Assembly (NCBI GenBank): GCA_036564905.1
Contig: DATCOD010000194.1
Location: 7,240 to 71,239 of the forward strand
From: Candidatus Limnocylindria bacterium
Lineage (GTDB): Bacteria > Chloroflexota > Limnocylindria > P2-11E
Direction: 5' to 3'
Length of the DNA stretch: 64,000 bases
The position numbers were made by a program, and so were the translations under genes. The notes below the pieces were generated by a model. The model ran no database searches, had not been told where the DNA came from, and saw only the letters and a program-made list of their open reading frames with translations. Numbering within the stretch: the first letter of the stretch is position 1; each line of letters begins with the position of its first letter. Shown in pieces: positions 2,344 through 57,433 of the stretch.

Positions 2344-2459
2344 ACTCGCTCCTCGTGGACACCCTCGAGCGGCCCGCGACCGTCACACAGTCGCAGCGGA
2401 CCGAGATCGAGGCGCAGCGCCAGGCGACGAGCGAGACCCGCCGCGCGACCGTGCCGGCG

Positions 2460-11207: not shown

Positions 11208-11639
11208 ATGGCCATGACGACGGGCGAATACCCGTTCGCGCACCGCCAGCGCGTGCGGTTCGGCGAGACGGACCTGCAGGCGGTCGTCTACTACGCGAAC
11301 TACCTGCTCTTCGCGGAGGTCGGGCGGATCGCGTACCTGCGCGACCTCGGCATCGACTACAAGCGCGATCTGCTCGAGCACGGCGTCGACTTCACGATCG
11401 GCGAGGCGAGCGTGCGCTACCAGGCACCCCTCCGATTCGACGATGAGTACGACATCCGCGTCCGGGTGGGGGAGATCCGAAACTCATCCTGGGTCTTCGA
11501 GTACGCGTTCGACCGCGCCGACGGGCTGCGCTGCGCGGTCGGATCCACGGTGCAGGTGATCCTCGACCACGCGAGCGGCAAGGCCGCGCGCATCCCGCAG
11601 CACCTGCGCGACGTCCTCGAGCGCGCGAAGACCGCCTGA
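11208..11639 (+). CDS. Acyl-CoA thioesterase, 4HBT/YbgC-like hotdog fold
   Basis: 'RVRFGETDLQAVVYYANYLLFAEVGRIAYLRDLG' is the YbgC/4HBT signature, with Asp in the ETD motif. Confidence 0.8.
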   Translation: MAMTTGEYPFAHRQRVRFGETDLQAVVYYANYLLFAEVGRIAYLRDLGIDYKRDLLEHGVDFTIGEASVRYQAPLRFDDEYDIRVRVGEIRNSSWVFEYAFDRADGLRCAVGSTVQVILDHASGKAARIPQHLRDVLERAKTA

Positions 11640-12907: not shown

Positions 12908-13822
12908 GTGGAAAAGCCAGCCGTGCTGAAAGCGTCCACGCCGGGCGGACATCCCGTCATTCGGGCGGTCTGGCTGACCGGGTTCCTCCTCGTGCTGGCC
13001 GCCGTCGGGCTGCGACTCGTCGGCTCGTTCGCGTCCCCGATCATCGCGCTCGTCGCCGCCGGATGGTTCCTCGCGGGCCTCGCCGCGTACCTCGTCCGGC
13101 ACGCGCGCTTCCTCGCGACGCTGTCGAGTGGGGAGCGCGCGCTGCGCGCCGGGGACCTCGCGACCGCGCGCGCGATCGTCGCGCCGCTCGTCGACCGCTA
13201 CCCGGCCTTTGCGCCGGTCCAGCGGCTCGCCGGGCTGGTCCTCTACCCGAGCGGCGACCCGCTCTCGGCCGCGACGCTCCTCGAGGCCGCGGGGAAGCAC
13301 GCCCACGACCGCGATCTCGTCGTCACGCTCGTCGCCGCGTACGCCGCGCTCAACAAGGCCGGGGATGCGCGCCGCTCGGCGGCGCTCCGGCCGAACGACC
13401 CGGACGTCCGGCTGGCGCTCGCCTGGGCGGAGCTCGTCGCGCTCGGCGGCGACCGCACACGCGGCGCGGCGCTCGCCGCCGCGCTGCCCGTGGACTCACC
13501 GGCCCGTGCCGCCATGGCCGCGACCCTGCAGGCGATCGCCGCCGCGCACCGCCGCGATGCGGACGCGGTCCGCGCCCGGCTACGTGACGCGGAGGATCGC
13601 TACGTCCTGCTGGCCGAAGACGAGCGGGCGTTCCTCGGCTATCTCGGTGGAGTCGCGCTCCGCGAGCTCGGCGCCTCCGACGACGCGCGAACGACGTTCA
13701 CGCTCGCGATGGAAGCGGCACCGGAGTCGATCGGCGAGGCGCTCGCGCGCCGTGAGCGGGCTCACTTACCGTCGGGCTCGGGCTCTCCTTCGTCCTCATC
13801 GGTCCAACCTTCGGCGGACTGA
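12908..13822 (+). CDS. Hypothetical membrane-anchored Ala-rich (TPR-like) protein
   Basis: Two N-terminal hydrophobic helices followed by Ala/Arg/Leu-rich helical repeats. No recognisable catalytic motif. Confidence 0.35.
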   Translation: MEKPAVLKASTPGGHPVIRAVWLTGFLLVLAAVGLRLVGSFASPIIALVAAGWFLAGLAAYLVRHARFLATLSSGERALRAGDLATARAIVAPLVDRYPAFAPVQRLAGLVLYPSGDPLSAATLLEAAGKHAHDRDLVVTLVAAYAALNKAGDARRSAALRPNDPDVRLALAWAELVALGGDRTRGAALAAALPVDSPARAAMAATLQAIAAAHRRDADAVRARLRDAEDRYVLLAEDERAFLGYLGGVALRELGASDDARTTFTLAMEAAPESIGEALARRERAHLPSGSGSPSSSSVQPSAD

Positions 13823-14075
13823 AGGTCGTCGGCGAACAGCTCGACGTCGAATCCGAGCCCGTCGATGACCGCGACGAGACCGTTGCGCTGCTCAGGCGGC
13901 GTCGTGCGGATCCAGCCCCGGACCACATCGTCGACGACCACCTCGTCGCCCGCGCGGTCGGACGCCACGAGCTCGCTCTCGTCGCGCGCGGCGGCCGTCG
14001 CGAGCTCGCGCAGCGTCGCGGGGACCATGTCGGCGAGCGCCCGCAGCGTCCGCTCGGCGTTGCCATCCCAGCGCA
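13762..14075 (-). CDS. Small hypothetical protein (104 aa) with acidic C-terminal tail, translationally coupled downstream of the acyl-CoA dehydrogenase
   Basis: ATG at 14075 lies 3 nt past the ACAD stop (14079-14081). The rest of the long ORF is an off-frame artefact. Confidence 0.4.
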
Positions 14076-14078
14076 TGG

Positions 14079-15251
14079 TCACGAAATGGCGTCGATGCCG
14101 GTCGCGAAACGGCTGATGATGAGCTTCTGGATCTGGCTCGTGCCCTCGTAGAGGCGGTTGACCCGAGCATCGCGCCAGTACCGCTCGACCGGGAACTCGT
14201 CCGAGAAGCCGTAGCCGCCATGGATCTGGATCGCGCCGTCGGCGGCTCGCTGCGCCGCCTCGGTCGCGTAGAGCTTCGCGATGCTCGTCTCGCGCGTGTT
14301 CGGCCGGCCCTTGTCCTTGAGGTCGCCGGCGCGCCAGACCAGGAGGCGCGCCGCCTCGGTCTCCACGACCATGTCCGCGATCAGCTCGGCGACGAGCTGA
14401 TGACCCGCGATCGGCTTTCCGAATGTCTTCCGCTGCGTCGAATACGTGACCGAGGCGTCGATGCAGGCCTGCGCCACGCCGACGGCCCCGGCCGCGACGG
14501 AGTAGCGCCCGGAGTCGAGCGCGCTCATCGCGATCTTGAAGCCGTCGCCGATCTCGCCCAGGCGGTTCGCGTCGGGCACGCGGACGTCGTCGAAGATGAG
14601 CTCCGACGAATCGCTCGAGCGCAGCCCGAGCTTCCCGTGGATGCCCTGGCTCCCGTACCGCTGCTTCTCGCGATCGAGGAGGAACGCGACGATCCCCTTG
14701 TGCCCCAGCGCCGGGTCGGTCTGCGCGAACACGAGGGCCAGCCCGCTCACGCTGCCATTGCTGATCCACATCTTCCGGCCGCGCAGGATCCAGTCAGAGC
14801 CATCGCGCTTCGCGCTCGTGCGCAGCTTCGTGGCGTCGCTGCCGACCTCGGGTTCGGTGAGGCCGAAGCAGCCGATGATCGCCCCGCTGCACAACGCCGG
14901 CAGGTACTGCCTCTTCTGCGCCTCGGTGCCCCACTTGAGGATCGTGAGCTCGACGAGCGAGATCTGGACCGACAGCGTCGTCCGGACGGACGAGTCCGCG
15001 CGGCCGATCTCCTCGGTCACGAGCGCGTGCGAGATGTAGTCGAGACCGTGACCGCCGTACGCCTCGGGGACCGGGCCGCCGAGCAGCCCGAGGGGGCCCA
15101 TCTTCTTCAGGACGTCGGCCGGGAACGTCTCGGTCCTGTCGCGCTCGCGGGCGCCGGGCGCGATCTCCCGGTCGGCGAAATCGCGCGCAAGCGCGCGGAT
15201 CGCGTCCTGTTCCGGGGAGAGGTCGTAGTCCACTGCGCCGAGTCTAGGCAA
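14079..15251 (-). CDS. Acyl-CoA dehydrogenase (glutaryl-/short-chain-like)
   Basis: 'FGLTEPEVGSDA', 'KMWISNG', 'QIHGGYGFSDEFPVERYWRDARVNRLYEGTSQIQ'. Confidence 0.9.
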   Translation of the reverse strand: MPRLGAVDYDLSPEQDAIRALARDFADREIAPGARERDRTETFPADVLKKMGPLGLLGGPVPEAYGGHGLDYISHALVTEEIGRADSSVRTTLSVQISLVELTILKWGTEAQKRQYLPALCSGAIIGCFGLTEPEVGSDATKLRTSAKRDGSDWILRGRKMWISNGSVSGLALVFAQTDPALGHKGIVAFLLDREKQRYGSQGIHGKLGLRSSDSSELIFDDVRVPDANRLGEIGDGFKIAMSALDSGRYSVAAGAVGVAQACIDASVTYSTQRKTFGKPIAGHQLVAELIADMVVETEAARLLVWRAGDLKDKGRPNTRETSIAKLYATEAAQRAADGAIQIHGGYGFSDEFPVERYWRDARVNRLYEGTSQIQKLIISRFATGIDAIS

Positions 15252-15356
15252 CGCCTCGTGTCCGAGTCGTTACCGGGCTGGGCCGGATGGCCCACGGTGA
15301 TGGTGCGGAACGGCCCTAGTCCGGCCGGTCCCGAGCGCTGACACTGGTCGGAAACC

Positions 15357-16448
15357 ATGCGCCAGCTGGAAATGCCGCTCGTCCTTGTCCTCGAGCCGGA
15401 CCAGACGCTCGCCGACCCGATCGGCGTCGCATTGCGCGGCGCCGGCCTCCAGGTGGTGTCGTGCCGTCATGCGGTCGACGCGGTCGCCGCGGTCTCGTTC
15501 CACCGTCCGAGCGTCGTCGTCATCGACGTCGGCGCAGACGACGGACACGGCTGGGATGTGCTCGTCGCGGCCCGCGACCACGGTCAGCTGCCGACCGTCG
15601 CGCTCGACCGTGAGGACGATCCGGCGACCCGGCGCGCCGCGTACGCCGCGGGTGCCGACGATGTCCTTGCCGCACGAGTGGATCCCGTGGACCTCGCGGC
15701 GCGCGTGGTCGCGCTCGCGCGGCGCGCTCGCCCGGAGTCGCGGGGCGGCGTGATCCACCGGCACCACGATCTGGTCATGGATGTCGCGGCGCACGAGGTC
15801 ACGCTCGCGGGGAAGCCGATCGCGTTCACGGCGCAGCAGTTCGCGATCCTGCGCGCGCTCCTCGAGGCAGGCGGCGCGACGTTGGGCCGCGAACAGCTCG
15901 TCAGCCGGACCGGGGCGCTCGACGACGAGCCGCCATCGGACCGGGCCATCGACCTGCACGTCACCCGGTTGCGCCGCCGGCTCGGCGACGACCCACGCGC
16001 GCCGCGGTACATCGAAGCCGTATACGGCGTCGGGTATCGGCTGGCGCATGGCACCGGCGGGGTCCAGCAGCAGCTGGGCGCCGACGCATCCGTGCTACTC
16101 GACGCGCTCCCGGACGCGGTCCTCGTGCTCGACCGCGCCCTCACCATCCGCTTCGCGAACCGCACCGCCGAGCTCCTCCTCGGCCTGCCGCGCGCGTCGC
16201 TCGCCGGCCAGCGCTGCGGCGCGATCCTCGCCTGCACGTCCTGCGGCGGCCTGCCGCTCGACGGGCCTCGCTGTATCGGTCGGGCGGCGCTCGGTGGCCT
16301 CGCACAGGTGCACGACGCGCCGGCGATCATGCGCGGTCCCGACGGTCCCCTGCCGGTCAGCCTGTCGTACGGACAGCTCGGGCTCGGCAAGGGCGACGCG
16401 CTGCTCACCTTGACCATCCGCCCGCGTTCGGCCGCGCCCGCGCCCTGA
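15357..16448 (+). CDS. Atypical response regulator: REC-like domain + OmpR/PhoB winged-helix DNA-binding domain + C-terminal PAS domain
   Basis: REC-like 'LVLVLEPDQ...VVVIDVGADDGHG'; wHTH 'FTAQQFAILRALLEAGGATLGREQLV...IEAVYGVGYRL'; PAS-like 'LLDALPDAVLVLDRALTIRFANRTAELLLG'. Confidence 0.7.
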   Translation: MRQLEMPLVLVLEPDQTLADPIGVALRGAGLQVVSCRHAVDAVAAVSFHRPSVVVIDVGADDGHGWDVLVAARDHGQLPTVALDREDDPATRRAAYAAGADDVLAARVDPVDLAARVVALARRARPESRGGVIHRHHDLVMDVAAHEVTLAGKPIAFTAQQFAILRALLEAGGATLGREQLVSRTGALDDEPPSDRAIDLHVTRLRRRLGDDPRAPRYIEAVYGVGYRLAHGTGGVQQQLGADASVLLDALPDAVLVLDRALTIRFANRTAELLLGLPRASLAGQRCGAILACTSCGGLPLDGPRCIGRAALGGLAQVHDAPAIMRGPDGPLPVSLSYGQLGLGKGDALLTLTIRPRSAAPAP

Positions 16449-16490: not shown

Positions 16491-16922
16491 ATGGTCATCA
16501 CCGCGGCCGGACCGGCCATTCGCGATCTCCGCCCAACGGACATCGCCGCACTCGTCTCGCTCGGGGACGCGCTCGGCGCGGGCGAGCCCGCCCAGGTCTG
16601 GCGCCGGCGCCTGGGCGACCGTGCGATCGTGGCGATCGGCGCCGAGCAGGATGGACGGATCGTCGGCTACGCCGCCGGCAGCGTGCGCACCGCCTTCGGT
16701 CTCGAGACCGGCGGTTGGGTCGAGACCTTCGCCGTCGCGAATGCGTGGCGCGGCCGCGGGCTCGGCCGGACTCTCGCGAGCGAGCTCCTCGCGCGCTTCC
16801 GCGCCACCGGCGCGCAGCACGTCTACACGATCGTCCCGGTCCACGACCTCGCGCTGCTGCCGTTCTTCCGCGATCTCGGCTTCCGCGACCTGCCCGTGAC
16901 GGCGCTCGGACGGACGCTGTGA
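16491..16922 (+). CDS. GNAT family N-acetyltransferase
   Basis: 'FAVANAWRGRGLGRTLASELL' is the GNAT motif A (R/Q-x-x-G-x-G/A). GTGA overlap with the downstream gene. Confidence 0.75.
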   Translation: MVITAAGPAIRDLRPTDIAALVSLGDALGAGEPAQVWRRRLGDRAIVAIGAEQDGRIVGYAAGSVRTAFGLETGGWVETFAVANAWRGRGLGRTLASELLARFRATGAQHVYTIVPVHDLALLPFFRDLGFRDLPVTALGRTL

Positions 16923-18082
16923 CCCTGACGCTGGACACCACGTTCCCGGCCGCTCGGTACCGCGACGTCGTCGAGGACCGGGACTTCCCGACCGTTCGCG
17001 ACTACGCGCGACGGACCGGTCGGTCCGCCGCCGGCTGCTACCCGGTGTACGGGCCGGTCGAGCTCGTGCGCGCCGCGGGACTCCTGCCGGTCGGTCTTTT
17101 CGGCGGCGGGAACCGCATCGAGATCGCGCATGCGGACTCCCGTTTCCAGTCGTTCATCTGCTCGATCGTGAAGAGCACGATGGAGCTCGGCTTCCAGGAG
17201 AAGCTCGGGCCGTTCAAGGCCCTGCTCTTCGAGTCGATCTGCGATCCCGCGCGGAACCTCGCCAGCATCATGTCGCGCAACTTCGCCGACCAGAAGTCGG
17301 TGTACGTCCACCTCCCGCAGAACATGACGTCGCCGGCGGCGGTCGACTACCTCGTGTCGGAGTACCGGCGCGTCCTCGCCGAGCTCTGCCTGGTGACGGG
17401 CACGACCGTCACCGACGACGATCTCCGCGAGAACCTCCGTTCGTACAACGCCATGCGGGCCGCGCTCCGCGAGCTCTACGCGTTCCGAGCGCGCCGCCCC
17501 GAATCGCTCCTCACGGGCGAGCTCTACACGCTCACCCGGCTTGCGACGTTGATGGATCCCGACGAGGTCACGCCGATCCTCCGCGAGTCGCTGGCGGCGG
17601 CGAACGAGCGCCAGGACCGGCCGAAGGACCGCATCCGGGTCGTGCTCATCGGCGCGTTCTGCGAGCAGCCACCACTCGAGCTCGTCGAGAGCATCGAGGA
17701 GTCCGGCTGCTACATCGTCGACGATGACTTCATGCTCGGATGGCGGTTGTTCCGCCGCGACGTGCCGCTGGACGGCGATCCGCTCGTCGCGCTCGCGCGG
17801 GCCTACCTCGATGACAGCGTGCACCTGAGCACGAAGCACGACCTCCGCGCGCCGCGCGCGAAGGCGATCGTGGACTCGGTGCGGTCCATGAAGGCCGACG
17901 CCGCGATCTGCCTCATCGCGAAGTTCTGCGAGCCAGGGCTCTTCGACTACGCGCTCTATCGCAAGGCGTTCGACGAGAACGCGATCCCGCATCTCTACCT
18001 CGAGTTCGAAGAGAAGATGTGGCTCTACGAAAAGATCAGAACGGAGGTCGAGACCTTCGTGGAATCGATGCTCTTCCGATGA
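16919..18082 (+). CDS. Bcr/Hgd-like enzyme, HGD-D-type subunit 1 (homologous to benzoyl-CoA reductase BcrB/BadE and 2-hydroxyacyl-CoA dehydratase HgdB)
   Basis: 387-aa product with HGD-D family features (conserved Cys; '...FICSIVKSTMELG...ICDPARN...CLIAKFCEPG'). GTG start overlaps the GNAT stop. Confidence 0.75.
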   Translation: MTLTLDTTFPAARYRDVVEDRDFPTVRDYARRTGRSAAGCYPVYGPVELVRAAGLLPVGLFGGGNRIEIAHADSRFQSFICSIVKSTMELGFQEKLGPFKALLFESICDPARNLASIMSRNFADQKSVYVHLPQNMTSPAAVDYLVSEYRRVLAELCLVTGTTVTDDDLRENLRSYNAMRAALRELYAFRARRPESLLTGELYTLTRLATLMDPDEVTPILRESLAAANERQDRPKDRIRVVLIGAFCEQPPLELVESIEESGCYIVDDDFMLGWRLFRRDVPLDGDPLVALARAYLDDSVHLSTKHDLRAPRAKAIVDSVRSMKADAAICLIAKFCEPGLFDYALYRKAFDENAIPHLYLEFEEKMWLYEKIRTEVETFVESMLFR

Positions 18083-19368
18083 CCGCTGCGGTCGAGATCA
18101 AGTACCAGGGCGAGCTGCATCTCCTGCAGAAGGAGATCATGGCGAAGTACTACGCCGAGGCGACCGCGATCGCCGAGGGGAACGGCAAGAAGGCCGCGCA
18201 CCTCCTGATCGCGGGGAACCCGGTCGAGCTCCTGCGGGCGTTCGACGTGCTCCCGATCTACCCGGAGGTGAACGTCCTCCAGATCGCGGTCCGGAAGGGC
18301 TCCCTCCCGCTCATCCAGAAGGCCGAAGAGCTCGGTTACGCGACGGACAACTGCGCCTACGTGAAAGCCGACATCGGTCTCTACCACGCCGGCGGCGTCA
18401 CGCCGTTCGCCAAGATCCCGAAGCCGGACGTGCTCGTGTGCAACTACGTCGGCTGCAACGTCTACCTCAACTGGTTCGAGCATCTCGCCGAGCTGACCGG
18501 CGCGCCGGCGATGAACATCGACATCCCGTTCATCCGCACGCCCGACGGCGAGCCGACCGCGGACGACGTCCGGTACGTGGTGAAGCAGCTCGAGGAGCTC
18601 ATCGTCCTTCTGGAGAACGTGACCGGGAAGAGCCTCGACTGGAAGGAATTCACGAAGATCGTCGAGCGCTCGTCCGAGACCGGACGCCTCTGGGCCGAGA
18701 TCAAGGACATGACCAAGGCGCGCCCGGCACCGTACGACGCCTACTTCGACTCGGTCACGATGATGGCCCCGCTCTACACGCTCCGCGGCACCGAGGAGGG
18801 CCTCCGGTTCTTCGAGGTCGCGCATCGCGAGATGAGCCAGCGGGTGCGCGAAGGCCGCGGCCCGCTCCCGGAGGAGCGGTTCCGCATCGTCATCGAGGGG
18901 CCGCCACCGTGGCCGAAGCTCCGGGTCTTCCGCGACATGTTCAGTCGCTGGGGCGCCGTCGCCGTCGCGTCCACCTATTCGACCGTCGGCGGGCTCTGGG
19001 AGTTCGGCTTCCGGCACGACCCGCAGCACCCGCTGGAGTCCATCGCCGCTCACATGCTGTCGTACAACGTCTGCAACCGGACCTTCCTCCAGCGCTATGA
19101 GCAGATCGAGCGGTACGTGGACGAGTGGCACGCCGACGCCGTGGTCATCCACTCGGTGAAGTCCTGCCGGCTCTTCTCCGCGGGGCAAGGCGACATGCGC
19201 GAGCACTTCGTCCGAGACCGCGACGTCCCGACGCTCCTCATCGAGTCCGATCTCGAGGACCCGCGCTACTTCTCGGAGGCGCAGCTCCGCAACCGCATCG
19301 ACGCCTTCTTCGAGGCGCTCGAGCAGCGGCGGATCACCGCGGGCAAGGCGGCCGGAGGGGTGTCATGA
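18079..19368 (+). CDS. Bcr/Hgd-like enzyme, HGD-D-type subunit 2 (BcrC/BadD/HgdA-like)
   Basis: 'NCAYVKADIG...LVCNYVGCNVYLNWFEHLA...VIHSVKSCRLFSAGQ' is the HGD-D-family Cys pattern. ATGA overlap with subunit 1. Confidence 0.75.
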   Translation: MTAAVEIKYQGELHLLQKEIMAKYYAEATAIAEGNGKKAAHLLIAGNPVELLRAFDVLPIYPEVNVLQIAVRKGSLPLIQKAEELGYATDNCAYVKADIGLYHAGGVTPFAKIPKPDVLVCNYVGCNVYLNWFEHLAELTGAPAMNIDIPFIRTPDGEPTADDVRYVVKQLEELIVLLENVTGKSLDWKEFTKIVERSSETGRLWAEIKDMTKARPAPYDAYFDSVTMMAPLYTLRGTEEGLRFFEVAHREMSQRVREGRGPLPEERFRIVIEGPPPWPKLRVFRDMFSRWGAVAVASTYSTVGGLWEFGFRHDPQHPLESIAAHMLSYNVCNRTFLQRYEQIERYVDEWHADAVVIHSVKSCRLFSAGQGDMREHFVRDRDVPTLLIESDLEDPRYFSEAQLRNRIDAFFEALEQRRITAGKAAGGVS

Positions 19369-20165
19369 GATACGCGGCGGGCGTCGATGTCGGATCCACG
19401 CAGACGAAGGCGATCATCGTCGACGAGCAGCAGCACATCATCGCCCGGTCCCTCACCGACACCGGCGCGTACCTCGTGCGTGCGGCCGACCGGGCCTTCC
19501 AGGCAGCGCTCGACGAGTCCGGGCTCGCCCGGGGCGACGTCGAGCAGGTCATCGGCACCGGCTATGGCCGATTCAAGGTCGAGTTCGGTGACGCGCAGGT
19601 GACCGAGATCTCGTGCCACGCGAAGGGCGCCTGGGCGCTCATTCCGGCCACCCGCACGGTCATCGACATCGGCGGCCAGGACACGAAGGCGATCAAGGTG
19701 AGCGACCACGGCGAGGTCCTCGACTTCGCGATGAACGACAAGTGCGCCGCGGGGAGCGGCCGGTTCCTCACCAACTCCGCCGAGGCGGTCGGGCTGCAGG
19801 TCTCAGAGATGGGCGAGCGGTCGATGGGCGCAAAGCAGCCCGTGCGTCTCTCGACCGTGTGCACGATCTTCGTCGAGTCCGACATCCTCCAGTACCTCGC
19901 TCAGGGGAAGAAGATCGAGGACATCCTGGCCGGGGTCCACGGCTCGATCGCCGCGCGCACCGTCGCCCTCGTCCGGCGCGTCGGCGCCGAGTCCGAGGTG
20001 ACGTTCACCGGCGGGGTCTCGCGCAACGTCGGCATCGTGAAGGCCGTGGAAGAGAAGCTCGCCACGCACGTGAACGTGAGCCCTGACTCGCACTACACCG
20101 GCGCGCTCGGCGCGGCGATCTTCGCGATGGAGCGGGTCGTCGCCGGCCGGGAGGTGCTCGCATGA
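19365..20165 (+). CDS. BadF/BadG/BcrA/BcrD-type ATPase subunit 1 (HgdC-like activator, ASKHA fold)
   Basis: 'AGVDVGSTQTKAIIVD', 'IDIGGQDTKAI', 'NDKCAAGSGRFL', 'TGGVSRN' are the acetate/sugar kinase-like ATPase motifs of HgdC/BcrAD. ATGA overlap upstream. Confidence 0.85.
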   Translation: MRYAAGVDVGSTQTKAIIVDEQQHIIARSLTDTGAYLVRAADRAFQAALDESGLARGDVEQVIGTGYGRFKVEFGDAQVTEISCHAKGAWALIPATRTVIDIGGQDTKAIKVSDHGEVLDFAMNDKCAAGSGRFLTNSAEAVGLQVSEMGERSMGAKQPVRLSTVCTIFVESDILQYLAQGKKIEDILAGVHGSIAARTVALVRRVGAESEVTFTGGVSRNVGIVKAVEEKLATHVNVSPDSHYTGALGAAIFAMERVVAGREVLA

Positions 20166-20965
20166 CGCTGATCGCCGGCATCGACATGGGCTCCCGAAGC
20201 GCGAAATGCGTGCTCATCGATGGGGACGCGGTCGTCGGGAGCGGGCTCGCGCGGATGCGCCCCGACTTCGCGGGTCTTGCGAACGAGGTCCTCGAGCTCG
20301 CGCTCGCGAAGGCCGGACGGCAGCGGACCGATGTCGCCTACATCGCGACGACCGGACTCGGCCGCTACAACGTGCCGCACCGCGACATCCAGATCACCGA
20401 CATCACCTGCGTCGCGCGGGGTGCCGCGCACCTCTTCCCGAACACCAGATCGGTGATCGACATCGGCGCGCAGACGACGCGCGCGATGCGCGTCAAGGAG
20501 GGCGGCCATGTCGTGGAGTTCCGGTCGAACGACAAGTGCGCCGCCGGCGCCGGCGGGTTCGCGGAGCGCGCGGCGCGTTACCTCGAGGTGAAGCTCGAGG
20601 ATCTCGGCGACCTGTCGCTCCGTGCCGACGGGGCCGAGGCCTTTACCTCGGTCTGCGCCGTGTTCGCGGAGTCCGAGATCATCAACCTCGTCACCGCCGG
20701 CACGAGCATCGAGAACATCGTCCGCGGGATCCACGACTCGCTCTCCGAGAAGGCTCTCCAGCTCCTGAAACGGGTCGGCCTCGAGCCCGAGCTCACCTTC
20801 GTGGGCGGCATGGCCCGGCAGGCCGGCCAGGTGAAGTCCCTCGAGACGGCGCTCGGGGTGTCGGTGAACGTCTCGCCGGATCCCGATCTCGTCGCGGCGC
20901 TCGGCGCCGCCCTCCTCGGGCGGCAGCGGTACGAGGGTCGTGCTTCGCAGGAGGTGGCGGCATGA
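20162..20965 (+). CDS. BadF/BadG/BcrA/BcrD-type ATPase subunit 2 (HgdC-like)
   Basis: 'AGIDMGSRSAKCVLID', 'IDIGAQTTRAM', 'NDKCAAGAGGF', 'VGGMARQ'. Paralogous to the preceding ATPase. Confidence 0.85.
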   Translation: MTLIAGIDMGSRSAKCVLIDGDAVVGSGLARMRPDFAGLANEVLELALAKAGRQRTDVAYIATTGLGRYNVPHRDIQITDITCVARGAAHLFPNTRSVIDIGAQTTRAMRVKEGGHVVEFRSNDKCAAGAGGFAERAARYLEVKLEDLGDLSLRADGAEAFTSVCAVFAESEIINLVTAGTSIENIVRGIHDSLSEKALQLLKRVGLEPELTFVGGMARQAGQVKSLETALGVSVNVSPDPDLVAALGAALLGRQRYEGRASQEVAA

Positions 20966-21918
20966 ACGAGCTCCACGACATCGGGTACACGATCAAGGAC
21001 TGGGTGGCCACGGTCACCATCCGCCGGCCGAGCTCGTACAACGCCTACACGACCCGCACCCTGGGCGAGCTCGCGCGGGCGTTCCGCGCAGCGTCGGAGG
21101 ACGACTCGGTCGCCGTCATCGTCCTCACCGGCGAGGGGGAGCAGGCCTTCTGCACCGGTGGCGACGTCAAGGAATACGCCGACGTGTACACGAAGCGCCC
21201 GCACGAGTACTGGAAGTACATGCGCGCGTTCTCCGACGCGATCGAAGGGCTCACGCAGTCGGGCAAGCCGACGATCGCGCGGATCAATGGAATGGCCGTC
21301 GGCGGCGGGAACGAGCTCAACCTCGCCTGCGACCTGTCGGTCGCGGCGGACCATGCCCGCTTCCGCCAGGTCGGCGTGCAGGTCGGCTCCGTCGCCGCGG
21401 GCGGGGCGACCCAGTGGCTCGCGCTCACGATCGGCGAGAAGCGCGCGCGGCAGATGCTCATGACCTGCGAGTGGGTGGACGCGAAGACGGCGCTCGAGTG
21501 GGGCCTCGTGAACGAGGTCGTACCCCTGGCCGAGCTCGACGCGGCGGTCGCGCGGCTCGCCGGGAAGCTCGTCGACACGTTCCCCGAGTGCATGCGCTAC
21601 ACGAAGGCGCAGGCCAACTTCCTGAAGGACTTCGTCTGGTCGTCCACCGTGAGCCACGCCAAGGACTGGCTCTCCGTGCACTTCGGCTCGCTCGAGCCGT
21701 ACGAGGGGATGAGCGCGTTCGCGCAGAAGCGGCGCGCCGACCGCGTCGGTCTCCGTGAGAAGGCCCGCGACGGTGGCTCGAGCGAATACCTCTGGGGTCC
21801 GAACACCCAAGCCTGTCCCGGCTGCGGGGCCCTGGGCCTGCCGGCCGCCTTCAGCCACTGCGGCAGGTGTGGCCACGCCCTCATGCCCGTGGCCGAGCCC
21901 GTCCATGCTGGTCGCTAG
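20962..21918 (+). CDS. Enoyl-CoA hydratase/isomerase (crotonase) family protein, possibly MenB/BadI-like, with an unusual ~45-aa C-terminal Cys4 zinc-ribbon tail
   Basis: Crotonase core 'AFCTGGDVKEY...INGMAVGGGNELNLACDL...EGMSAFAQKRRAD', then 'CPGCGALGLPAAFSHCGRCGH'. RBS 'aggaggtggcgg' upstream; ATGA overlap with ATPase 2. Confidence 0.8.
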   Translation: MNELHDIGYTIKDWVATVTIRRPSSYNAYTTRTLGELARAFRAASEDDSVAVIVLTGEGEQAFCTGGDVKEYADVYTKRPHEYWKYMRAFSDAIEGLTQSGKPTIARINGMAVGGGNELNLACDLSVAADHARFRQVGVQVGSVAAGGATQWLALTIGEKRARQMLMTCEWVDAKTALEWGLVNEVVPLAELDAAVARLAGKLVDTFPECMRYTKAQANFLKDFVWSSTVSHAKDWLSVHFGSLEPYEGMSAFAQKRRADRVGLREKARDGGSSEYLWGPNTQACPGCGALGLPAAFSHCGRCGHALMPVAEPVHAGR

Positions 21919-22684
21919 CCGAAGCGCGACCCGTGACGCCGCGCCGCTCCTGGGGCGTGTCGCCCTCGTGACCGGCGGCTCGCGGGGCATCGGGCGCGCG
22001 ATCGCGCTCGACCTCGCCGCGCACGGAGCGGCGGTCGCGTTCACCTACGCGCACGATGCCGCCGCGGCCGGCGCGGTCACCGACCGCATCGCCGAGGCCG
22101 GGCGCGACGCGCTGGCCGTCCGGGCGGACGGCCGCACGGTTGCGGACGTCGAGCTCGCCATCGCCGCGACCGCTGAACGGTTCGGCGGCCTCGACATCCT
22201 CGTGAACAACGCCGGGATCACCCGCGACCGGATGGTCTGGAAGATGACCGATGACGAGTGGTCCGATGTGCTCGACGCCGACCTCAGCGCGTGCTTCCGG
22301 TACATCCGCGCCGCCGTGCCCCTGCTCCGCGAGCGAGGCGGTGGGCGGATCGTGAGCATCTCCTCGATCAACGCCCAGCGGGGGAAGCTCGGGCAGTCGA
22401 ACTACACCGCGTCGAAGGCGGGCATCATCGGGCTCTCCAAGAGCGTCGCGCGCGAGGTCGGGCAGTACGGCATCACGGTGAACGTCATCACCCCGGGCCT
22501 CATCGCGACCGATCTCGTCGCCGCCGCGCCCGACGAGGTCCGCACGCGCGCGCTCGGCGAGATCGTCCTCGGCAGGCTCGGTGCGCCCGAGGACGTGGCG
22601 GCGCTCGTCACGTTCCTCGCGACCGATCGCGCGAAGCACATCACCGGCGCGGTCATCCCGGTCGACGGTGGCCAATACCTCTAG
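21905..22684 (+). CDS. SDR-family oxidoreductase, FabG/BadH-like 3-oxoacyl or 2-hydroxyacyl-CoA dehydrogenase
   Basis: 'ALVTGGSRGIGRAIA', 'NNAGI', 'SSINAQRGKLGQSNYTASKAG' contain the TGxxxGxG and YxxxK motifs. Start may instead be a downstream GTG. Confidence 0.85.
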   Translation: MLVASRSATRDAAPLLGRVALVTGGSRGIGRAIALDLAAHGAAVAFTYAHDAAAAGAVTDRIAEAGRDALAVRADGRTVADVELAIAATAERFGGLDILVNNAGITRDRMVWKMTDDEWSDVLDADLSACFRYIRAAVPLLRERGGGRIVSISSINAQRGKLGQSNYTASKAGIIGLSKSVAREVGQYGITVNVITPGLIATDLVAAAPDEVRTRALGEIVLGRLGAPEDVAALVTFLATDRAKHITGAVIPVDGGQYL

Positions 22685-22693
22685 GGGGACGGC

Positions 22694-23128
22694 ATGCGGA
22701 TCATCGATCGCTTCTCACGCGAGCACGAGGCCTTCGTCGGAGCGCTCGACGCGCTCCGGATCGCCGTGGCGTCAGGCGGCGACGTTGGTCTCGCGATCGC
22801 CGCGATCCGGACGCTCGCCGAGCCGCTGCTGCGGCACGCCGCGAACGAGGAGGTCCTGCTCTTCCCGGACCTCGTGGAGAAGCTCGGAGGCGAGGACGGC
22901 GGCCCGGTGGGGGTCCTCCGGCAGGAGCACACGATCATCCACGGTCAGGTCGACACGCTGCGCGGGACCCCGACGCGGGCCGACTTCGATCGGGTGTTCA
23001 AGGCGTTCGACGCGCTGCTCCGAGAGCACATCGAGAAGGAAGAGGAGGTGCTCTTCCCGCTGTCGGCGCGGCTGCTCGGGGACGCCCGCCTCGCCGAGAT
23101 GGACGAGGAGATCGCCGCGGGGGTCTAG
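22694..23128 (+). CDS. Hemerythrin-like (HHE cation-binding) domain protein
   Basis: 'REHEAF...LLRHAANEEVLLFPDL...LRQEHTIIH...LLREHIEKEEEVLFP' has the repeated H/E-x-x-x-E spacing typical of hemerythrin HHE domains. Confidence 0.55.
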   Translation: MRIIDRFSREHEAFVGALDALRIAVASGGDVGLAIAAIRTLAEPLLRHAANEEVLLFPDLVEKLGGEDGGPVGVLRQEHTIIHGQVDTLRGTPTRADFDRVFKAFDALLREHIEKEEEVLFPLSARLLGDARLAEMDEEIAAGV

Positions 23129-23895
23129 TGGTGCACCCACCTGGGGGGGCGCTTTTCGAGGAACGCGCGGAGACCCTCCTGCGCGTCGGCCGATCCCGGT
23201 AGCGCATCGACCGAGAGCGCGTTCGCTCGCTCGATCGCGGCGAGCAGATCCGGCCACGAGACACGGAGGGAGCGGCGCGCGAGGCGCAGCGCGGATGCGC
23301 TCTTCGCTTCGAAGCCCGCGGCGACCCGCGCGGCCTCGGCGCGCAGCTCCGTCGCGGGCACGCTTCGCCAGACAAGTCCCCACGCGGCCGCCTCGGCCCC
23401 GGAGATCGGCTCGCCGGTGAGCACGAGGGCCGCGGCGCGCTGGCGGCCGATCACGCTCGGGAAGAGCGCCGCGCCGACCGGAGGGACCACCGCAAGGGTG
23501 ATCTCGGGCACGCCGATCCGGGCGTCGTCCGCGACGATCGCGAGGTCACAGAGCGCCACGAGCTCGCACGCACCACCCAGCGCCGAGCCGTGCACGACGG
23601 CCATGACCGGGACGTCGCCCTCGATGAGCCGGACGGCCACGCGGGTGAACGCGTCGAGCATCGGGCCGATCTGGTCGCCCAGGTGCTCGCCGATGTCGAC
23701 GCCCGCGGAGAACGTCTTACCGGCGCCTTCCAGGACGATGAGCTTCAGCGATCGGTCGGCCGCGAGATCGTGGAGCGTCTCGTCGAGCTCGTCCATGAGC
23801 GCCATGTTCAGGACGTTCAGCGGCGGCCGATCGAGGGTCGTCCACGCCACGCCGCCTTCGCGGCGCACGTGGACCTGGGTTCCGATGGCGGGCAT
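23125..23895 (-). CDS. Enoyl-CoA hydratase/isomerase family protein
   Basis: 'LEGAGKTFSAGVDI...AVVHGSALGGACELVALCDLAIV...GLRAFLEKRPPRW'. ATG at 23895 confirmed by the 'cat' on the plus strand. Confidence 0.85.
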   Translation of the reverse strand: MPAIGTQVHVRREGGVAWTTLDRPPLNVLNMALMDELDETLHDLAADRSLKLIVLEGAGKTFSAGVDIGEHLGDQIGPMLDAFTRVAVRLIEGDVPVMAVVHGSALGGACELVALCDLAIVADDARIGVPEITLAVVPPVGAALFPSVIGRQRAAALVLTGEPISGAEAAAWGLVWRSVPATELRAEAARVAAGFEAKSASALRLARRSLRVSWPDLLAAIERANALSVDALPGSADAQEGLRAFLEKRPPRWVHH

Positions 23896-24079
23896 GGTAG
23901 GGATGGTCGGCGCCGGCCGTGTCCGTCCGGCGTCAGCCACGGCCGGTGCGGCACGCCCCGCTGACATCGGCCGGACATCCTTCGCCGCTACGGTCCGAAG
24001 GAGACGCTCGCCGGGAGGCCTGCCCACGTCGATCGACACCGCACCAGCCGCCGACCCGACCGACGCCTTGCCGGCGACG

Positions 24080-25102
24080 ATGCGTGGCGCGGTGTTCACC
24101 GGCGGCGGCAAGCCGCTCGAGCTGCGCGTCGTTCCCCGGCCGAACGCCGGACCGGGAGAGGTCCTCGTCCGGGTGGTCGCCTGCGGGCTCTGCCACAGCG
24201 ACCTCCATTACCTCGACCACGGCACGCCGACGTTCAAGGCGCCGCCGCTCATCCTGGGCCACGAGATCTCAGGCACGGTGGTGGGCGTCGGCTCGGGAGT
24301 GAGCCCGGAGCGCACCGGTGAGGGCGTCGTCCTGTCCTCGATCTCGACCTGCGGCACGTGTCCCGCCTGCCGGTCCGGACGGGAGAACCAGTGCGCGGAG
24401 CAGCGGATGATCGGCAACTCGGTCGACGGCGGCCTCTCCGAGTACGTCGCCTGGCCGGCCCGCGACACGTTCCAGATCCCTCCTGAGGTGCCCCTCGAGG
24501 ACGCCTGCATCGTCGCCGACGCGCTCACGACCGCGTTCCACGCGGTCGTCCGCCGCGGCCGCGTCTCGTCCGGCGAGACGGTCGCGGTCTTCGGCTGTGG
24601 CGGCGTCGGACTCTCGGCCGTCCAGGTGGCCGTCCAGGCGGGCGCCCGCGTCCTCGCGATCGACATCGACCCGAAGAAGCTCGCGCTCGCGCGGGCGTTC
24701 GGCGCCGAGCTCACGTTCGACGCGAAGGATCCGGACCTCGTCAAGGCGTTGAAGCGCGCGACGTCCGGTGGACCCGACGTCGCCATCGAAGCCATCGGCA
24801 AGCCGGACGTGCAGGAGCAGGCCCTCTCGGCGCTGCGCACCGGCGGCCGGCTCGTGCTCCTGGGCTTCGCCGCGAAACCGATGTCCGTGCAGGGCGGCCG
24901 GGTGACGTTCCGGGAGCTCGAGATCATCGGCACGCTCGGCTGCCGCAACGTGGACTTCCCCCTCGTCATCGACCTCGTCCGGCGCGGCAAGCTCTTGATC
25001 ACGCCGCTCGTCTCACATCGCCATCGCCTGGAGGAGGTGAATGCGGGCTTCGACCTGTTGCGCTCGGGCGCCGGTATCCGTCACATCGTCGTGATGGAGT
25101 AG
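24080..25102 (+). CDS. Zinc-dependent alcohol dehydrogenase (MDR family)
   Basis: 'ACGLCHSDLH' and 'GHEISGTVVGVG' are the catalytic Zn site; 'CGTCPACRSGRENQC' is the structural Zn site; 'VFGCGGVGLSAV' is the NAD fold. Confidence 0.85.
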   Translation: MRGAVFTGGGKPLELRVVPRPNAGPGEVLVRVVACGLCHSDLHYLDHGTPTFKAPPLILGHEISGTVVGVGSGVSPERTGEGVVLSSISTCGTCPACRSGRENQCAEQRMIGNSVDGGLSEYVAWPARDTFQIPPEVPLEDACIVADALTTAFHAVVRRGRVSSGETVAVFGCGGVGLSAVQVAVQAGARVLAIDIDPKKLALARAFGAELTFDAKDPDLVKALKRATSGGPDVAIEAIGKPDVQEQALSALRTGGRLVLLGFAAKPMSVQGGRVTFRELEIIGTLGCRNVDFPLVIDLVRRGKLLITPLVSHRHRLEEVNAGFDLLRSGAGIRHIVVME

Positions 25103-26685: not shown

Positions 26686-27860
<1,175 letters not shown>

Positions 27861-27864
<4 letters not shown>

Positions 27865-28724: not shown

Positions 28725-28754
28725 CTGCGCGGCGAGTCTGCCACCATCTGCCTC

Positions 28755-57410: not shown

Positions 57411-57433
57411 CCGATGCGCGCATTCTCCCATCC

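Follow-up and report, generated by a model that had tools for sequence, protein, structure and literature searches.

The closest described systems are class I aryl-CoA reductases and one 2-hydroxyacyl-CoA dehydratase. The BCR type is encoded by BcrCBAD in Thauera aromatica and BadDEFG in Rhodopseudomonas palustris; the MBR type, 3-methylbenzoyl-CoA reductase MbdONQP (Thauera chlorobenzoica/Aromatoleum sp. CIB; PDB 9g87, 9gai), likewise has four subunits, two of them ATPases of ∼270 aa. BzdNOPQ (BZD-type, Aromatoleum sp. CIB; PDB 8s02; PMC11971306) belongs to the same reaction class, also with small ATPases, and works on an active-site principle (three-Cys [4Fe-4S]-OH2 cluster, Glu, and two thioester-binding Tyr) that recurs in the genes described here. 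(R)-2-hydroxyisocaproyl-CoA dehydratase HadBC of Clostridioides difficile and its activator HadI (PDB 3o3m, 4eht) share the BCR/HAD radical superfamily and folds, the three-Cys active-site cluster, and an ATPase of the same size with the same cluster ligands; but HadI is one homodimeric activator working catalytically, and the HadBC reaction is a non-redox dehydration.

In the window (the whole 64-kb stretch of Chloroflexota DNA analyzed), four translationally coupled genes at 16919-20965 on the forward strand encode two HGD-D subunits and two BcrAD/BadFG ATPases, in an order (gamma-beta-alpha-delta) identical to that of bcrCBAD:

16919-18082, + strand: gamma subunit, BcrC/MbdN-like, 387 aa; predicted electron-transfer Fe-S subunit (Pfam HGD-D, E 1.7e-73)
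18079-19368, + strand: beta subunit, BcrB/MbdO-like, 429 aa; predicted substrate-binding active-site subunit (HGD-D, E 5.6e-68)
19365-20165, + strand: alpha ATPase, MbdQ-like, 266 aa (BcrAD_BadFG, E 1e-64)
20162-20965, + strand: delta ATPase, BcrD/MbdP-like, 267 aa (BcrAD_BadFG, E 4e-53)

The Pfam matches and open reading frames agree with an earlier note on this DNA, which had described two HGD-D genes followed by two BadF/BadG/BcrA/BcrD-family ATPase genes, all joined by ATGA/GTGA overlaps; a 4-bp overlap (GTGA or ATGA) is indeed present at every junction. The length of 267 aa given there for both ATPases is right for delta but not for alpha (266 aa), and the four-gene operon it proposed is coupled as described but belongs to a longer string, running from a GNAT acetyltransferase (whose 3′ end, 16922, overlaps the gamma start, 16919) through gamma, beta, alpha, and delta to an Oah/BadI-like hydrolase (a crotonase whose start, 20962, overlaps the delta stop by ATGA), an SDR, and a hemerythrin. 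Codon usage of the four genes is native (GC3 0.91-0.94), and the same gene boundaries were called on four independent metagenome contigs with identical protein.

Among NCBIfam models, BcrC, BcrB, and BcrD were the best full-length equivalog matches for gamma, beta, and delta, and BcrA was the best BCR-subunit match for alpha; for these subunits the BCR models outscored the HAD, BZD, and double-cubane models. All four subunits fall below the equivalog cut-offs, at 35-70% of them: gamma scored 296.7 bits on TIGR02263 BcrC (cut-off 421), beta 311.5 bits on TIGR02260 BcrB (cut-off 486.6), and delta 168 bits on TIGR02261 BcrD (cut-off 313). The best PDB matches were the corresponding chains of 3-methylbenzoyl-CoA reductase for gamma (MbdN 260 bits; HadC 182, BzdN 97), beta (MbdO 243 bits; HadB 178, BzdO 124), and alpha (MbdQ 339 bits at 59% identity; HadI 239, HgdC 204), and its two ATPases were the top two for delta (MbdQ 215 bits, ahead of MbdP 180).

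The earlier note had proposed a check of Cys-ligand conservation. Beta C92, C126, C363, E63, Y94, and Y300 align with BzdO C95, C128, C380, E65, Y97, and Y298, taken as the reference active site (PMC11971306); the five of these residues compared across the clade (the three Cys, E63, and Y94) do not vary among 21 members. At the positions of BzdO His131 and Gln274, beta has Tyr129 and Pro275, and MbdO likewise has an aromatic residue (Phe) and Pro. In gamma, Cys81, 108, 248, 264, and 337 are invariant among 75 clade members, the same five-Cys pattern as in MbdN; C248 and C264 are extra Cys that HadC lacks. Only three of the six BzdN [8Fe-9S] ligands are retained, with Met272 and Leu303 in place of C263 and C293, and these two positions are non-Cys in all 75 members save for one Cys at the second.

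Both ATPases carry both cluster Cys ligands (the NDKC and VC motifs in alpha). Delta is 36-41% identical to MbdQ, MbdP, HadI, and HgdC, and, as a difference from MBR, is no nearer to MbdP (39%) than to MbdQ (41%). Judged by sequence, alpha and delta are old, distinct paralogues: a recent tandem duplication of one activator is ruled out, since they share 38% identity whereas alpha is 59% identical to betaproteobacterial MbdQ. Unlike BcrA, alpha lacks a ∼200-residue N-terminal part (its match spans profile positions 215-432), and it has 266 aa where the BcrA of a canonical control cluster (L088) has 446. The earlier note had read the two small, HgdC-sized ATPases as an uncharacterised variant; this pairing is no mark of novelty, because MbdQ (269 aa) and MbdP (273 aa) of the solved 3-methylbenzoyl-CoA reductase are already of that size.

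A neighbour-joining tree of the beta subunit alone (deep nodes 37-50% bootstrap) placed beta inside the BCR/MBR (Thauera-type) superclade with 100% bootstrap, together with MbdO and two BcrB equivalogs (630 and 815 bits on TIGR02260); HadB and HAD-like representatives fall outside it. Within the superclade, beta belongs to a clade of its own (100% bootstrap) that includes neither MbdO nor the BcrB equivalogs; it falls outside the MBR subclade (99% support) and groups weakly on the BcrB side. Beta shares only 37-39% identity with genuine BcrB and 36% with MbdO, so substrate specificity is not transferable from either; identity is 29% to HadB and 27% to BzdO (HMM scores 100-120 bits vs. cut-offs of ∼450). 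The gene order, NCBIfam matches, and beta tree thus bear out the claim that the subunit composition is that of class I benzoyl-CoA reductases (BcrCBAD/BadDEFG), unlike dehydratases, and beta does not lie within the HadB-type group. The clade is present in 388 species-level genomes; the best 80 of these are all MAGs from uncultured soil and sediment lineages, with no cultured carrier among them, and the closest relatives (90-97% identity) are Chloroflexota/Ca. Limnocylindria MAGs. The host therefore belongs to an uncultured soil lineage of Limnocylindria-type Chloroflexota and is no actinobacterium.

On these comparisons, the product of the four genes is probably a class I aryl-CoA reductase of the BCR/MBR (Thauera) type, a heterotetramer dependent on ATP, whose likeliest substrate is benzoyl-CoA; it represents a clade not characterised before. 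By analogy, the enzyme most likely uses ATP to dearomatise benzoyl-CoA-type compounds, with no need for oxygen. The enzyme class and paired small ATPases (MbdQ, MbdP) are already known; new is a clade that lies below all equivalog cut-offs, is widespread in uncultured lineages, has no linked ferredoxin, and is often hemerythrin-linked. It also differs from MBR in its gamma-beta-alpha-delta order, its Chloroflexota host, and the linked hemerythrin gene.

The neighbouring genes are as follows:

11208-11639, + strand: 4HBT_2 thioesterase (Pfam); possible accessory gene
11639-12784, + strand: acyl-CoA dehydrogenase (Pfam); possible accessory gene
14079-15251, - strand: acyl-CoA dehydrogenase, glutaryl-CoA dehydrogenase (Acd)-like (NF045552)
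15357-16448, + strand: OmpR-type response regulator with C-terminal PAS (Response_reg, Trans_reg_C, PAS); candidate operon regulator
16491-16922, + strand: GNAT acetyltransferase (Pfam Acetyltransf_1); candidate BadL-type regulator-effector enzyme
20962-21918, + strand: crotonase, Oah/BadI/MenB subfamily, 318 aa; predicted ring-cleaving hydrolase
21905-22684, + strand: SDR, 259 aa (adh_short_C2, E 6e-59)
22694-23128, + strand: single-domain hemerythrin (HHE; PF01814, E 6.6e-21), last gene of the + strand string
23125-23895, - strand: enoyl-CoA hydratase, 256 aa (ECH_1, E 1.8e-48); predicted dienoyl-CoA hydratase (Dch-like)
24020-25102, + strand: Zn-dependent alcohol dehydrogenase, 360 aa; predicted 6-hydroxycyclohex-1-ene-1-carbonyl-CoA dehydrogenase (Had-like)
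26686-27864, - strand: thiolase, 392 aa (Thiolase_N/C; BktB subfamily, 507 bits)

By homology, the Oah-, Dch-, Had-, thiolase-, and glutaryl-CoA-dehydrogenase-like neighbours form a complete benzoyl-CoA-pathway-like set. The crotonase matched TIGR03200 (6-oxocyclohex-1-ene-1-carbonyl-CoA hydrolase) best, at 197 bits, below the cut-off of 464 (MenB 183, BadI 169), and is 33% identical to the ECH at the Oah position of the control cluster; the Dch-like hydratase scored 132 bits on TIGR03189 Dch (cut-off 292) and aligns full-length with the ECH at the Dch position (38% identity). The best NCBIfam match of the Had-like dehydrogenase is TIGR03201 dearomat_had (223.8 bits, cut-off 338.7), and the Acd-like protein reached 345.5 bits on NF045552 GlutCoADH_Des, below the cut-off of 470, which its homologue in a Binatia cluster (L072) exceeds with 496 bits. 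The SDR is FabG/acetoacetyl-CoA-reductase-like (248-267 bits) and a predicted 3-hydroxyacyl-CoA (3-hydroxypimelyl-CoA) dehydrogenase; the thiolase is predicted to act on 3-oxopimelyl-CoA. The acyl-CoA dehydrogenase at 11639-12784 resembles cyclohexane-1-carbonyl-CoA-DH and acryloyl-CoA reductase, and a 4HBT_2 thioesterase lies downstream of bcr-like genes in 13 Acidobacteriota loci; the pathway membership of these two genes (11208-12784) is uncertain. We found no recognisable benzoate-CoA ligase (the nearby ligase is acetyl-CoA-synthetase-like), and no gene for ferredoxin or a ferredoxin-reducing enzyme within the 64-kb window. A ferredoxin motif occurs in just 5 of 87 related loci; by contrast, the BCR type has linked ferredoxin and 2-oxoglutarate:ferredoxin oxidoreductase genes, and the control cluster encodes Fdx and KGOR.

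Parts of this context are conserved. The response regulator is kept directly upstream of GNAT-bcr in most Limnocylindria/Chloroflexota loci, and a GNAT accompanies the clade in each of the three context types; the one here aligns over its full length (30% identity, E 4e-13) with that of the control cluster, which is arranged as BcrCBAD-Fdx-GNAT-Rrf2. BadL/BadM provide the precedent for a GNAT and Rrf2 pair (PMC6191541), and the Acidobacteriota pair, 44% and 50% identical to that of the canonical cluster, is the BadL/BadM arrangement. Chloroflexota and Eremiobacterota loci retain Oah-, Had-, and Dch-like genes, the Had-like gene co-occurring with the clade in both, and in Binatia-type loci a BadH-like SDR is found together with a glutaryl-CoA dehydrogenase that passes its cut-off. 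Acidobacteriota bcrABCD transcripts have been reported from peat (bioRxiv 10.64898/2026.05.27.727921).

The best-surviving alternative keeps the architecture and ATP-driven mechanism and assumes a physiological substrate other than benzoyl-CoA: a benzoyl-CoA bearing a hydroxy, methyl, amino, or methoxy group and derived from lignin or humics, or an alicyclic/bicyclic CoA ester that is already partly reduced (cf. tetrahydronaphthoyl-CoA reductase). We consider this unlikely, if plausible. The sub-cut-off scores of all subunits and the separation of the clade from BcrB equivalogs and MbdO fit it, as do class I relatives with other substrates (e.g., MBR), but the GNAT, and GNAT plus Rrf2 in Acidobacteriota, have homologues in a canonical benzoyl-CoA reductase cluster. 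The downstream enzymes are distant homologues of Dch, Had, and Oah, and the sets vary by phylum (Had/Oah-type vs. BadH-type); yet the full set here, with glutaryl-CoA dehydrogenase, suits the route for unsubstituted benzoyl-CoA, and occurrence in 388 species genomes is easier to square with a central intermediate than with a niche substrate.

We think it very improbable that the genes encode a HAD-type 2-hydroxyacyl-CoA dehydratase with a heterodimeric activator, performing redox-neutral radical dehydration in the breakdown of amino acids or hydroxy acids. The genes do fall into the Pfam families of such dehydratases, NCBI labels relatives "2-hydroxyacyl-CoA dehydratase," and the PDB matches to HadB, HadC, and HadI are significant, but on the two catalytic subunits the HAD models score far below the BCR models (196 vs. 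311 and 208 vs. 297 bits). Beta and HadB have the three-Cys-plus-Glu active-site pattern in common; against this stand the position of HadB outside the BCR/MBR clade, two diverged ATPases instead of one homodimeric activator, the extra gamma Cys, and a different gene context, in which ring-pathway homologues are present and no CoA-transferase or 2-hydroxyacid dehydrogenase was found nearby. Least credible of all is a reductase of the double-cubane-cluster type (DCCP/BZD-like) with a small molecule or other non-CoA compound as its substrate: matches to NF040772 (136 and 78 bits) and to DCCP chains 7yyl and 6eno are weak though significant, but gamma lacks half of the BzdN cluster ligands, the subunits would form a heterodimer with a HadB/BzdO-type three-Cys active site where DCCP is a homodimer, the thioester-binding Tyr residues are conserved, and every neighbouring gene encodes an acyl-CoA-metabolising enzyme.

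For the class I reductase, we infer a mechanism by homology with BCR, MBR, and BzdNO, starting from the observed gene content, homology, ligand conservation, phylogenetic placement, and context conservation; substrate, electron donor, GNAT and hemerythrin roles, and all catalysis are predicted. Reduced ferredoxin or flavodoxin, encoded elsewhere, would pass an electron to the [4Fe-4S] cluster bridging the alpha and delta ATPases, and from there it would travel via the gamma Fe-S cluster to the beta three-Cys [4Fe-4S]-OH2 cluster, where the aromatic ring of the CoA thioester would be reduced to a cyclic 1,5-dienoyl-CoA. The Dch-like hydratase, Had-like Zn-dehydrogenase, and Oah/BadI-like ring hydrolase may then act in turn, and the SDR, thiolase, and glutaryl-CoA-dehydrogenase-like enzymes would lead to acetyl-CoA. 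The GNAT may be a BadL-like regulatory acetyltransferase, and the hemerythrin, co-transcribed with the reductase genes, probably acts as a sensor or scavenger of O2 or NO, or helps to preserve the Fe-S enzyme.

The earlier note had found it notable that an O2-labile enzyme should lie beside a hemerythrin in an apparently aerobic genome. The aerobe paradox is weaker than stated, since class I BCRs are characteristically found in facultative anaerobes (PMC11971306), and Limnocylindria from sediment possess both nitrate reductase and cytochrome bd oxidase (PMC13212565). The hemerythrin link itself recurs: the gene at 22694-23128 is the sole hemerythrin ORF in the window, the canonical control cluster has none, and among the 39 loci flanked by 4 kb or more on each side, 27 have a hemerythrin ORF within 8 kb of the bcr-like genes. 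Because hemerythrin recurs next to the clade in several phyla, its presence here is no accident.

The bcr-like genes of the window comprise two HGD-D and two BcrAD_BadFG genes encoded together, an assignment on which Pfam and NCBIfam agree, and every junction between them is a GTGA or ATGA overlap of 4 bp, both as the earlier note had described; of the 267 aa that it gave for both ATPases, the figure stands for delta, and alpha has 266 aa. The coupled unit is larger than was described there, since GNAT, gamma-beta-alpha-delta, crotonase, SDR, and hemerythrin genes form one tightly packed string, which we delimited from the genes called on syntenic contigs and from scans against Pfam and NCBIfam.

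Genes of the string and its downstream flank (Pfam E-values for the four subunits)
16491-16922, + strand: GNAT acetyltransferase, overlapping the start of the gamma gene
16919-18082, + strand: gamma subunit, 387 aa, HGD-D (E 1.7e-73)
18079-19368, + strand: beta subunit, 429 aa, HGD-D (E 5.6e-68)
19365-20165, + strand: alpha ATPase, 266 aa, BcrAD_BadFG (E 1e-64)
20162-20965, + strand: delta ATPase, 267 aa, BcrAD_BadFG (E 4e-53)
20962-21918, + strand: crotonase, 318 aa, ATGA overlap with the delta stop
21905-22684, + strand: SDR, after the crotonase
22694-23128, + strand: hemerythrin, after the SDR
23125-23895, convergent to the string: enoyl-CoA hydratase, 256 aa
24020-25102: Zn-alcohol dehydrogenase, flanking the string
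26686-27864: thiolase, flanking the string

Upstream of the string lie genes for an OmpR/PAS response regulator, two acyl-CoA dehydrogenases (ACADs), a 4HBT thioesterase, an acetyl-CoA-synthetase-like ligase, and an MFS transporter; the remainder of the window carries housekeeping genes (ilv/leu, HisRS, aconitase-family, E1 dehydrogenase), which indicates that the locus belongs to the core chromosome. The beta protein occurs as an identical copy on 13 metagenome contigs, with likewise identical gene calls; these calls place the crotonase at 20962-21918, and so we discarded an ORF at 20940-21758 (no Pfam match) as the gene following delta. The window has a G+C content of about 70%, and the GC3 of the four genes (0.91-0.94) equals that of the flanking genes, so the four genes are native; a recent horizontal acquisition, considered because of a dip in GC to 0.667 at 18-20 kb, is ruled out by the same GC3 values. 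An actinobacterial origin, considered because of the high GC, is ruled out as well, since the nearest homologues and the syntenic contigs are Chloroflexota or Candidatus Limnocylindria MAGs. A promoter and terminator scan returned no promoter and one antisense terminator-like site, fewer than expected from shuffling.

Some other genes of the window deserve mention. An ORF at 12908-13822 (+ strand, 299-304 aa) of no Pfam family lies between two ACAD genes and is kept in the closest Limnocylindria loci, its counterparts scoring 610 bits in locus L001 and 497 bits in locus L009; in L001, a 104-aa ORF is called on the - strand (5601-5915), overlapping this counterpart. At 2241-4670 (+ strand), a ThyX ORF is split by an intein with an HNH endonuclease (two Pfam Thy1 stretches, Intein_splicing, and HNH). 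Two long ORFs overlap on opposite strands, 27774-30422 (+, a gamma-glutamyltranspeptidase match) and 27861-30290 (-, a Peptidase_S58 match); the gene calls of syntenic contigs give a short S58 gene followed by the gamma-glutamyltranspeptidase gene.

The best NCBIfam models run colinear with bcrCBAD across the four subunits: gamma matches BcrC (TIGR02263; 296.7 bits vs. a cut-off of 421), beta BcrB (TIGR02260; 311.5 vs. 486.6), alpha the C-terminal half only of BcrA (TIGR02259; 199 vs. 578), and delta BcrD (TIGR02261; 168 vs. 313). None of the four reaches its equivalog cut-off. Lower scores for gamma and beta, respectively, were obtained with the models of the 2-hydroxyacyl-CoA dehydratase (HAD) system (208 and 196 bits), the BZD type (100 and 120), and the double-cubane type (136 and 78). 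Among solved structures, the best match is the corresponding chain of 3-methylbenzoyl-CoA reductase (MBR) for three of the four subunits (MbdN, 260 bits; MbdO, 243; MbdQ, 339), delta scoring higher with MbdQ (215 bits) than with MbdP (180); HadBC/HadI, BzdNO, and DCCP score below the MBR chains. The fold of the subunits is already settled, since in sequence comparison the matches to solved homologues reach E-values of 1e-71 to 1e-100. The beta subunit is 37-39% identical to BcrB, 36% to MbdO, 29% to HadB, and 27% to BzdO.

The earlier note had taken the two small ATPases as the mark of an uncharacterised variant. The solved MBR (MbdONQP) already has two such ATPases, MbdQ of 269 aa and MbdP of 273 aa, which like those of the window lack the N-terminal extension of BcrA; the arrangement is thus known and solved, and no new variant follows from it. 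Alpha and delta are distinct paralogues, only 38% identical to each other, whereas alpha is 59% identical to MbdQ; the ATPase duplication therefore predates the divergence of this clade from MBR, and the two genes are not a recent tandem duplication of one activator.

We compared the metal-ligand and active-site positions named in the BzdNO structure paper (PMC11971306) by HMMER alignment. Beta C92, C126, and C363 align with BzdO C95, C128, and C380, which hold the catalytic [4Fe-4S]-OH2 cluster; beta E63 aligns with the catalytic glutamate E65, and beta Y94 and Y300 with the thioester-binding tyrosines Y97 and Y298. His131 and Gln274 of BzdO are replaced by Tyr129 and Pro275 in beta, and by Phe and Pro in MbdO. 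Beta C92, C126, C363, E63, Y94, and Y129, the positions checked across the clade, are invariant in 21 clade members. The double-cubane [8Fe-9S] cluster of BzdN has six Cys ligands (PMC11971306), of which gamma retains only three (C81, C108, and C337, equivalent to BzdN C73, C100, and C327); BzdN C263, C293, and C36 correspond to M272, L303, and P42, and the pattern is alike across the clade. Two additional cysteines of gamma, C248 and C264, are common to MbdN, and C81, C108, C248, C264, and C337 are invariant in 75 clade members. This ligand pattern of gamma and beta identifies the enzyme as of the BCR/MBR (Thauera) type and not the BZD type. NDKC and VC motifs are found in both window ATPases as well as in MbdQ, MbdP, HadI, and HgdC; we take their cysteines to be the ligands of the subunit-bridging [4Fe-4S] cluster, as in the HgdC structure.

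An exhaustive nearest-neighbour search of beta against 1.84 billion 50%-identity representatives found P0121 at 53% identity, one Kariarchaeaceae representative at 43%, and many at 36-42%; two representatives are true BcrB equivalogs, labelled as such by NCBIfam score (630 and 815 bits on TIGR02260). The second-nearest representative at 43% (P0122, with P0271-P0275) comes from MAGs of Candidatus Kariarchaeaceae (Asgard archaea) and is named benzoyl-CoA reductase subunit B at JGI. We built a neighbour-joining tree of the beta subunit alone (55 beta-type sequences, numpy-computed distances, 100 bootstraps), with MbdO, HadB, and BzdO references taken from PDB alignments. A BCR/MBR superclade with 100% bootstrap support unites the window clade with the MBR subclade and the BcrB equivalogs. 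The window clade (100%) has P0121 as its sister (92%) and lies outside the MBR subclade (99%), in which MbdO groups with the representative P0138 (100%); deep branches within the superclade are weak (37-50%). The clade is well separated and highly conserved, with 66-97% identity among its members and at most 53% to the representatives of all other 50%-identity clusters.

Scanning each GTDB species by a single genome, we found relatives in 388 genomes. The best 80 of the 388 are all MAGs, with no cultured organism among them; they belong to Chloroflexota (mostly Candidatus Limnocylindria), Acidobacteriota, Binatia, Methylomirabilia, Dormiibacterota, Eremiobacterota (Vulcanimicrobiota), Verrucomicrobiia, and “Deltaproteobacteria” with Syntrophobacter-like bins. 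The window beta protein is 97% identical to that of “Chloroflexi bacterium UBA4730.” A 2.8-kb contig binned as “Myxococcales” (JAYTLP010000460.1) encodes a beta protein 86% identical to that of the window, nearer to it than most Chloroflexota loci, so a binning error is likely here rather than transfer. Transcripts of bcrABCD from Acidobacteriota have been reported in peat (preprint 10.64898/2026.05.27.727921). We found no characterisation of the clade, although it is annotated. The feature is real, and it represents an uncharacterised clade of a known kind of enzyme, with the known mechanism and architecture unchanged.

We also surveyed the gene context of 87 related loci with phmmer, and find three types. 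In type A (Chloroflexota and Eremiobacterota), the bcr-like genes occur with Oah-like, Had-like, and Dch-like genes. In the window, for example, the 318-aa crotonase has ring-cleaving Oah as its best model (197 bits), followed by MenB and BadI; the Zn-alcohol dehydrogenase best matches Had (224 bits), the 256-aa hydratase matches Dch (132 bits), and one ACAD resembles the non-decarboxylating glutaryl-CoA dehydrogenase (345 bits), each under its cut-off. In type B (Binatia, “delta,” and Verrucomicrobia), the bcr-like genes are followed by SDR, ECH, SDR, ECH, GNAT, and two ACAD genes; in the Binatia-type locus L072, the first SDR best matches BadH (287 bits), and the last ACAD, at 496 bits, exceeds the cut-off of 470 for the glutaryl-CoA dehydrogenase Acd. 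In type C (Acidobacteriota), ACADs, a thiolase, a RIC-type hemerythrin, GNAT, and Rrf2 precede the bcr-like genes, and a thioesterase follows. The control locus L088, which surrounds a true BcrB equivalog, has the order Oah(389)-Dch(254)-BcrC-BcrB-BcrA(446)-BcrD(281)-Fdx(81)-GNAT(168)-Rrf2(142)-KGOR. Its GNAT and Rrf2 are 44 and 50% identical to those of Acidobacteriota, and its GNAT is 30% identical to that of the window (E 4e-13); the genes in its Dch and Oah positions are 38 and 33% identical to the window 256-aa hydratase and 318-aa crotonase, respectively. In the benzoate cluster of R. palustris, GNAT and Rrf2 make up the regulatory pair BadL/BadM (PMC6191541); our own GNAT comparisons are with the L088 GNAT. 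Overall, the gene context appears to connect this clade with the benzoyl-CoA pathway along several independent lines.

Class I benzoyl-CoA reductases convert benzoyl-CoA to cyclohexa-1,5-diene-1-carbonyl-CoA at the expense of 2 ATP per 2 electrons. The window enzyme is probably a class I aryl-CoA reductase acting on benzoyl-CoA or a close analogue. By analogy with BCR, MBR, and BzdNO (PMC11971306), from which the steps up to ring reduction are transferred, reduced ferredoxin or flavodoxin would reduce the cluster bridging the paired ATPases alpha and delta, which would hydrolyse one ATP per electron; the electron would pass to the gamma cluster and on to the beta [4Fe-4S]-OH2 cluster, and hydrogen-atom and electron transfer to the ring would yield the 1,5-dienoyl-CoA. 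The product may then undergo hydration (Dch-like), oxidation (Had-like), and ring hydrolysis (Oah-like), homologues of the dienoyl-CoA hydratase, the 6-hydroxy dehydrogenase, and the ring hydrolase all adjoining the bcr-like genes and all scoring under their cut-offs; beta-oxidation would be completed by the SDR, thiolase, and glutaryl-CoA dehydrogenase. The main rival keeps the enzyme class and takes a substituted aryl-CoA or an alicyclic CoA ester as substrate, which we regard as possible but unlikely. The clade proteins are named “benzoyl-CoA reductase subunit B” at JGI and “2-hydroxyacyl-CoA dehydratase” at NCBI, and the three-Cys/Glu/Tyr site alone does not separate the two classes, because HadB has the same feature. 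A HAD-type dehydratase is nevertheless very improbable: that system has a single homodimeric activator gene, whereas the window has two diverged ATPases, the HAD models score below the BCR models, and HadB and the HAD-like representatives fall outside the superclade, HadB and HadC being the named dehydratases compared. A double-cubane-type reductase, whose models score lower still for both gamma and beta, is hardly credible.

Linkage of ferredoxin genes to class I BCR genes is usual, not obligatory. The canonical control L088 has Fdx and KGOR beside bcrD, whereas the window clade is mostly without a linked ferredoxin: the 2[4Fe-4S] ferredoxin motif CxxCxxCxxxCP is in no ORF of the whole 64-kb window, and in only 5 of the 87 related loci. 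In contrast to Thauera-type clusters, the cluster of this clade does not encode its electron donor.

A hemerythrin-domain ORF is found no more than 8 kb from the bcr-like genes, mostly within 2.5 kb, in 41 of the 87 loci; among the 39 loci with 4 kb or more of flanking sequence on each side, 27 have one (loci counted irrespective of kinship in both cases). Canonical BcrCBAD control loci have none. The gene at 22694-23128 is the sole hemerythrin ORF of the window. In Limnocylindria, the hemerythrin is single-domain and downstream, inside the operon; in Eremiobacterota, Methylomirabilia, and some Acidobacteriota it comes straight after delta; most Acidobacteriota have a ScdA_N-hemerythrin (RIC/YtfE-type) gene upstream, some Binatia an upstream divergent one, and most type B loci lack it. 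Examples beside bcr-like genes are found in L005 (12873-13382), L006 (6046-6801), and L007 (7759-8388). In L005, a Vulcanimicrobiaceae MAG, the hemerythrin is followed at 13484-15628 by three DUF2249 genes, a 397-aa unannotated gene, and a FeS_assembly_P gene, possibly a small module for Fe-S maintenance. The hemerythrin could act as a sensor or scavenger of O2 or NO, or in the repair of Fe-S clusters; we found no paper that pairs benzoyl-CoA reductase with hemerythrin.

To our knowledge, work on class I benzoyl-CoA reductases has been confined almost entirely to a few Proteobacteria. The enzyme class is extremely O2-sensitive, and the host lineages are commonly seen as aerobic heterotrophs. 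The literature weakens any paradox of an O2-labile enzyme in such a host: facultative anaerobes are the usual carriers of class I BCRs (PMC11971306), and Limnocylindria, an uncultivated class across soil, sediment, and freshwater, includes sediment lineages with nitrate reductase and cytochrome bd oxidase (PMC13212565), so that a BCR-type enzyme in this host is not paradoxical; the window itself is silent on oxygen relations. If active, the enzyme would assign oxygen-independent degradation of aromatic rings to supposedly aerobic lineages, with a bearing on lignin and humic carbon turnover, the carriers (best 80 of 388) being MAGs of abundant uncultured soil, peat, and sediment phyla. The interest of the clade comes from its breadth across uncultured soil phyla, the lack of a linked ferredoxin, and the recurrent hemerythrin/RIC partner, the last two being leads on the electron donor and on Fe-S upkeep under fluctuating redox. 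We offer tentatively, as a doubtful proposition, that in uncultured and mostly aerobic soil lineages (Limnocylindria, Acidobacteriota, Eremiobacterota, and Methylomirabilota) the clade may represent an aryl-CoA reductase system of class I that has become adapted to oxic-anoxic interfaces. It would have a dedicated hemerythrin/RIC di-iron partner, which would sense or scavenge O2/NO or repair Fe-S clusters, and a donor other than clustered ferredoxin/KGOR, allowing ATP-driven dearomatisation where canonical BCRs would be inactivated. Were this so, much of the “anaerobic” turnover of aromatic and lignin-derived carbon in bulk soils would run via this unstudied enzyme. The “F420-dependent LLMs” once cited as neighbours are two divergent Bac_luciferase ORFs (56517-57455, - strand; 57290-58357, + strand) whose stop-to-stop frames overlap; they are luciferase-like monooxygenases by family, with F420 dependence at most putative.
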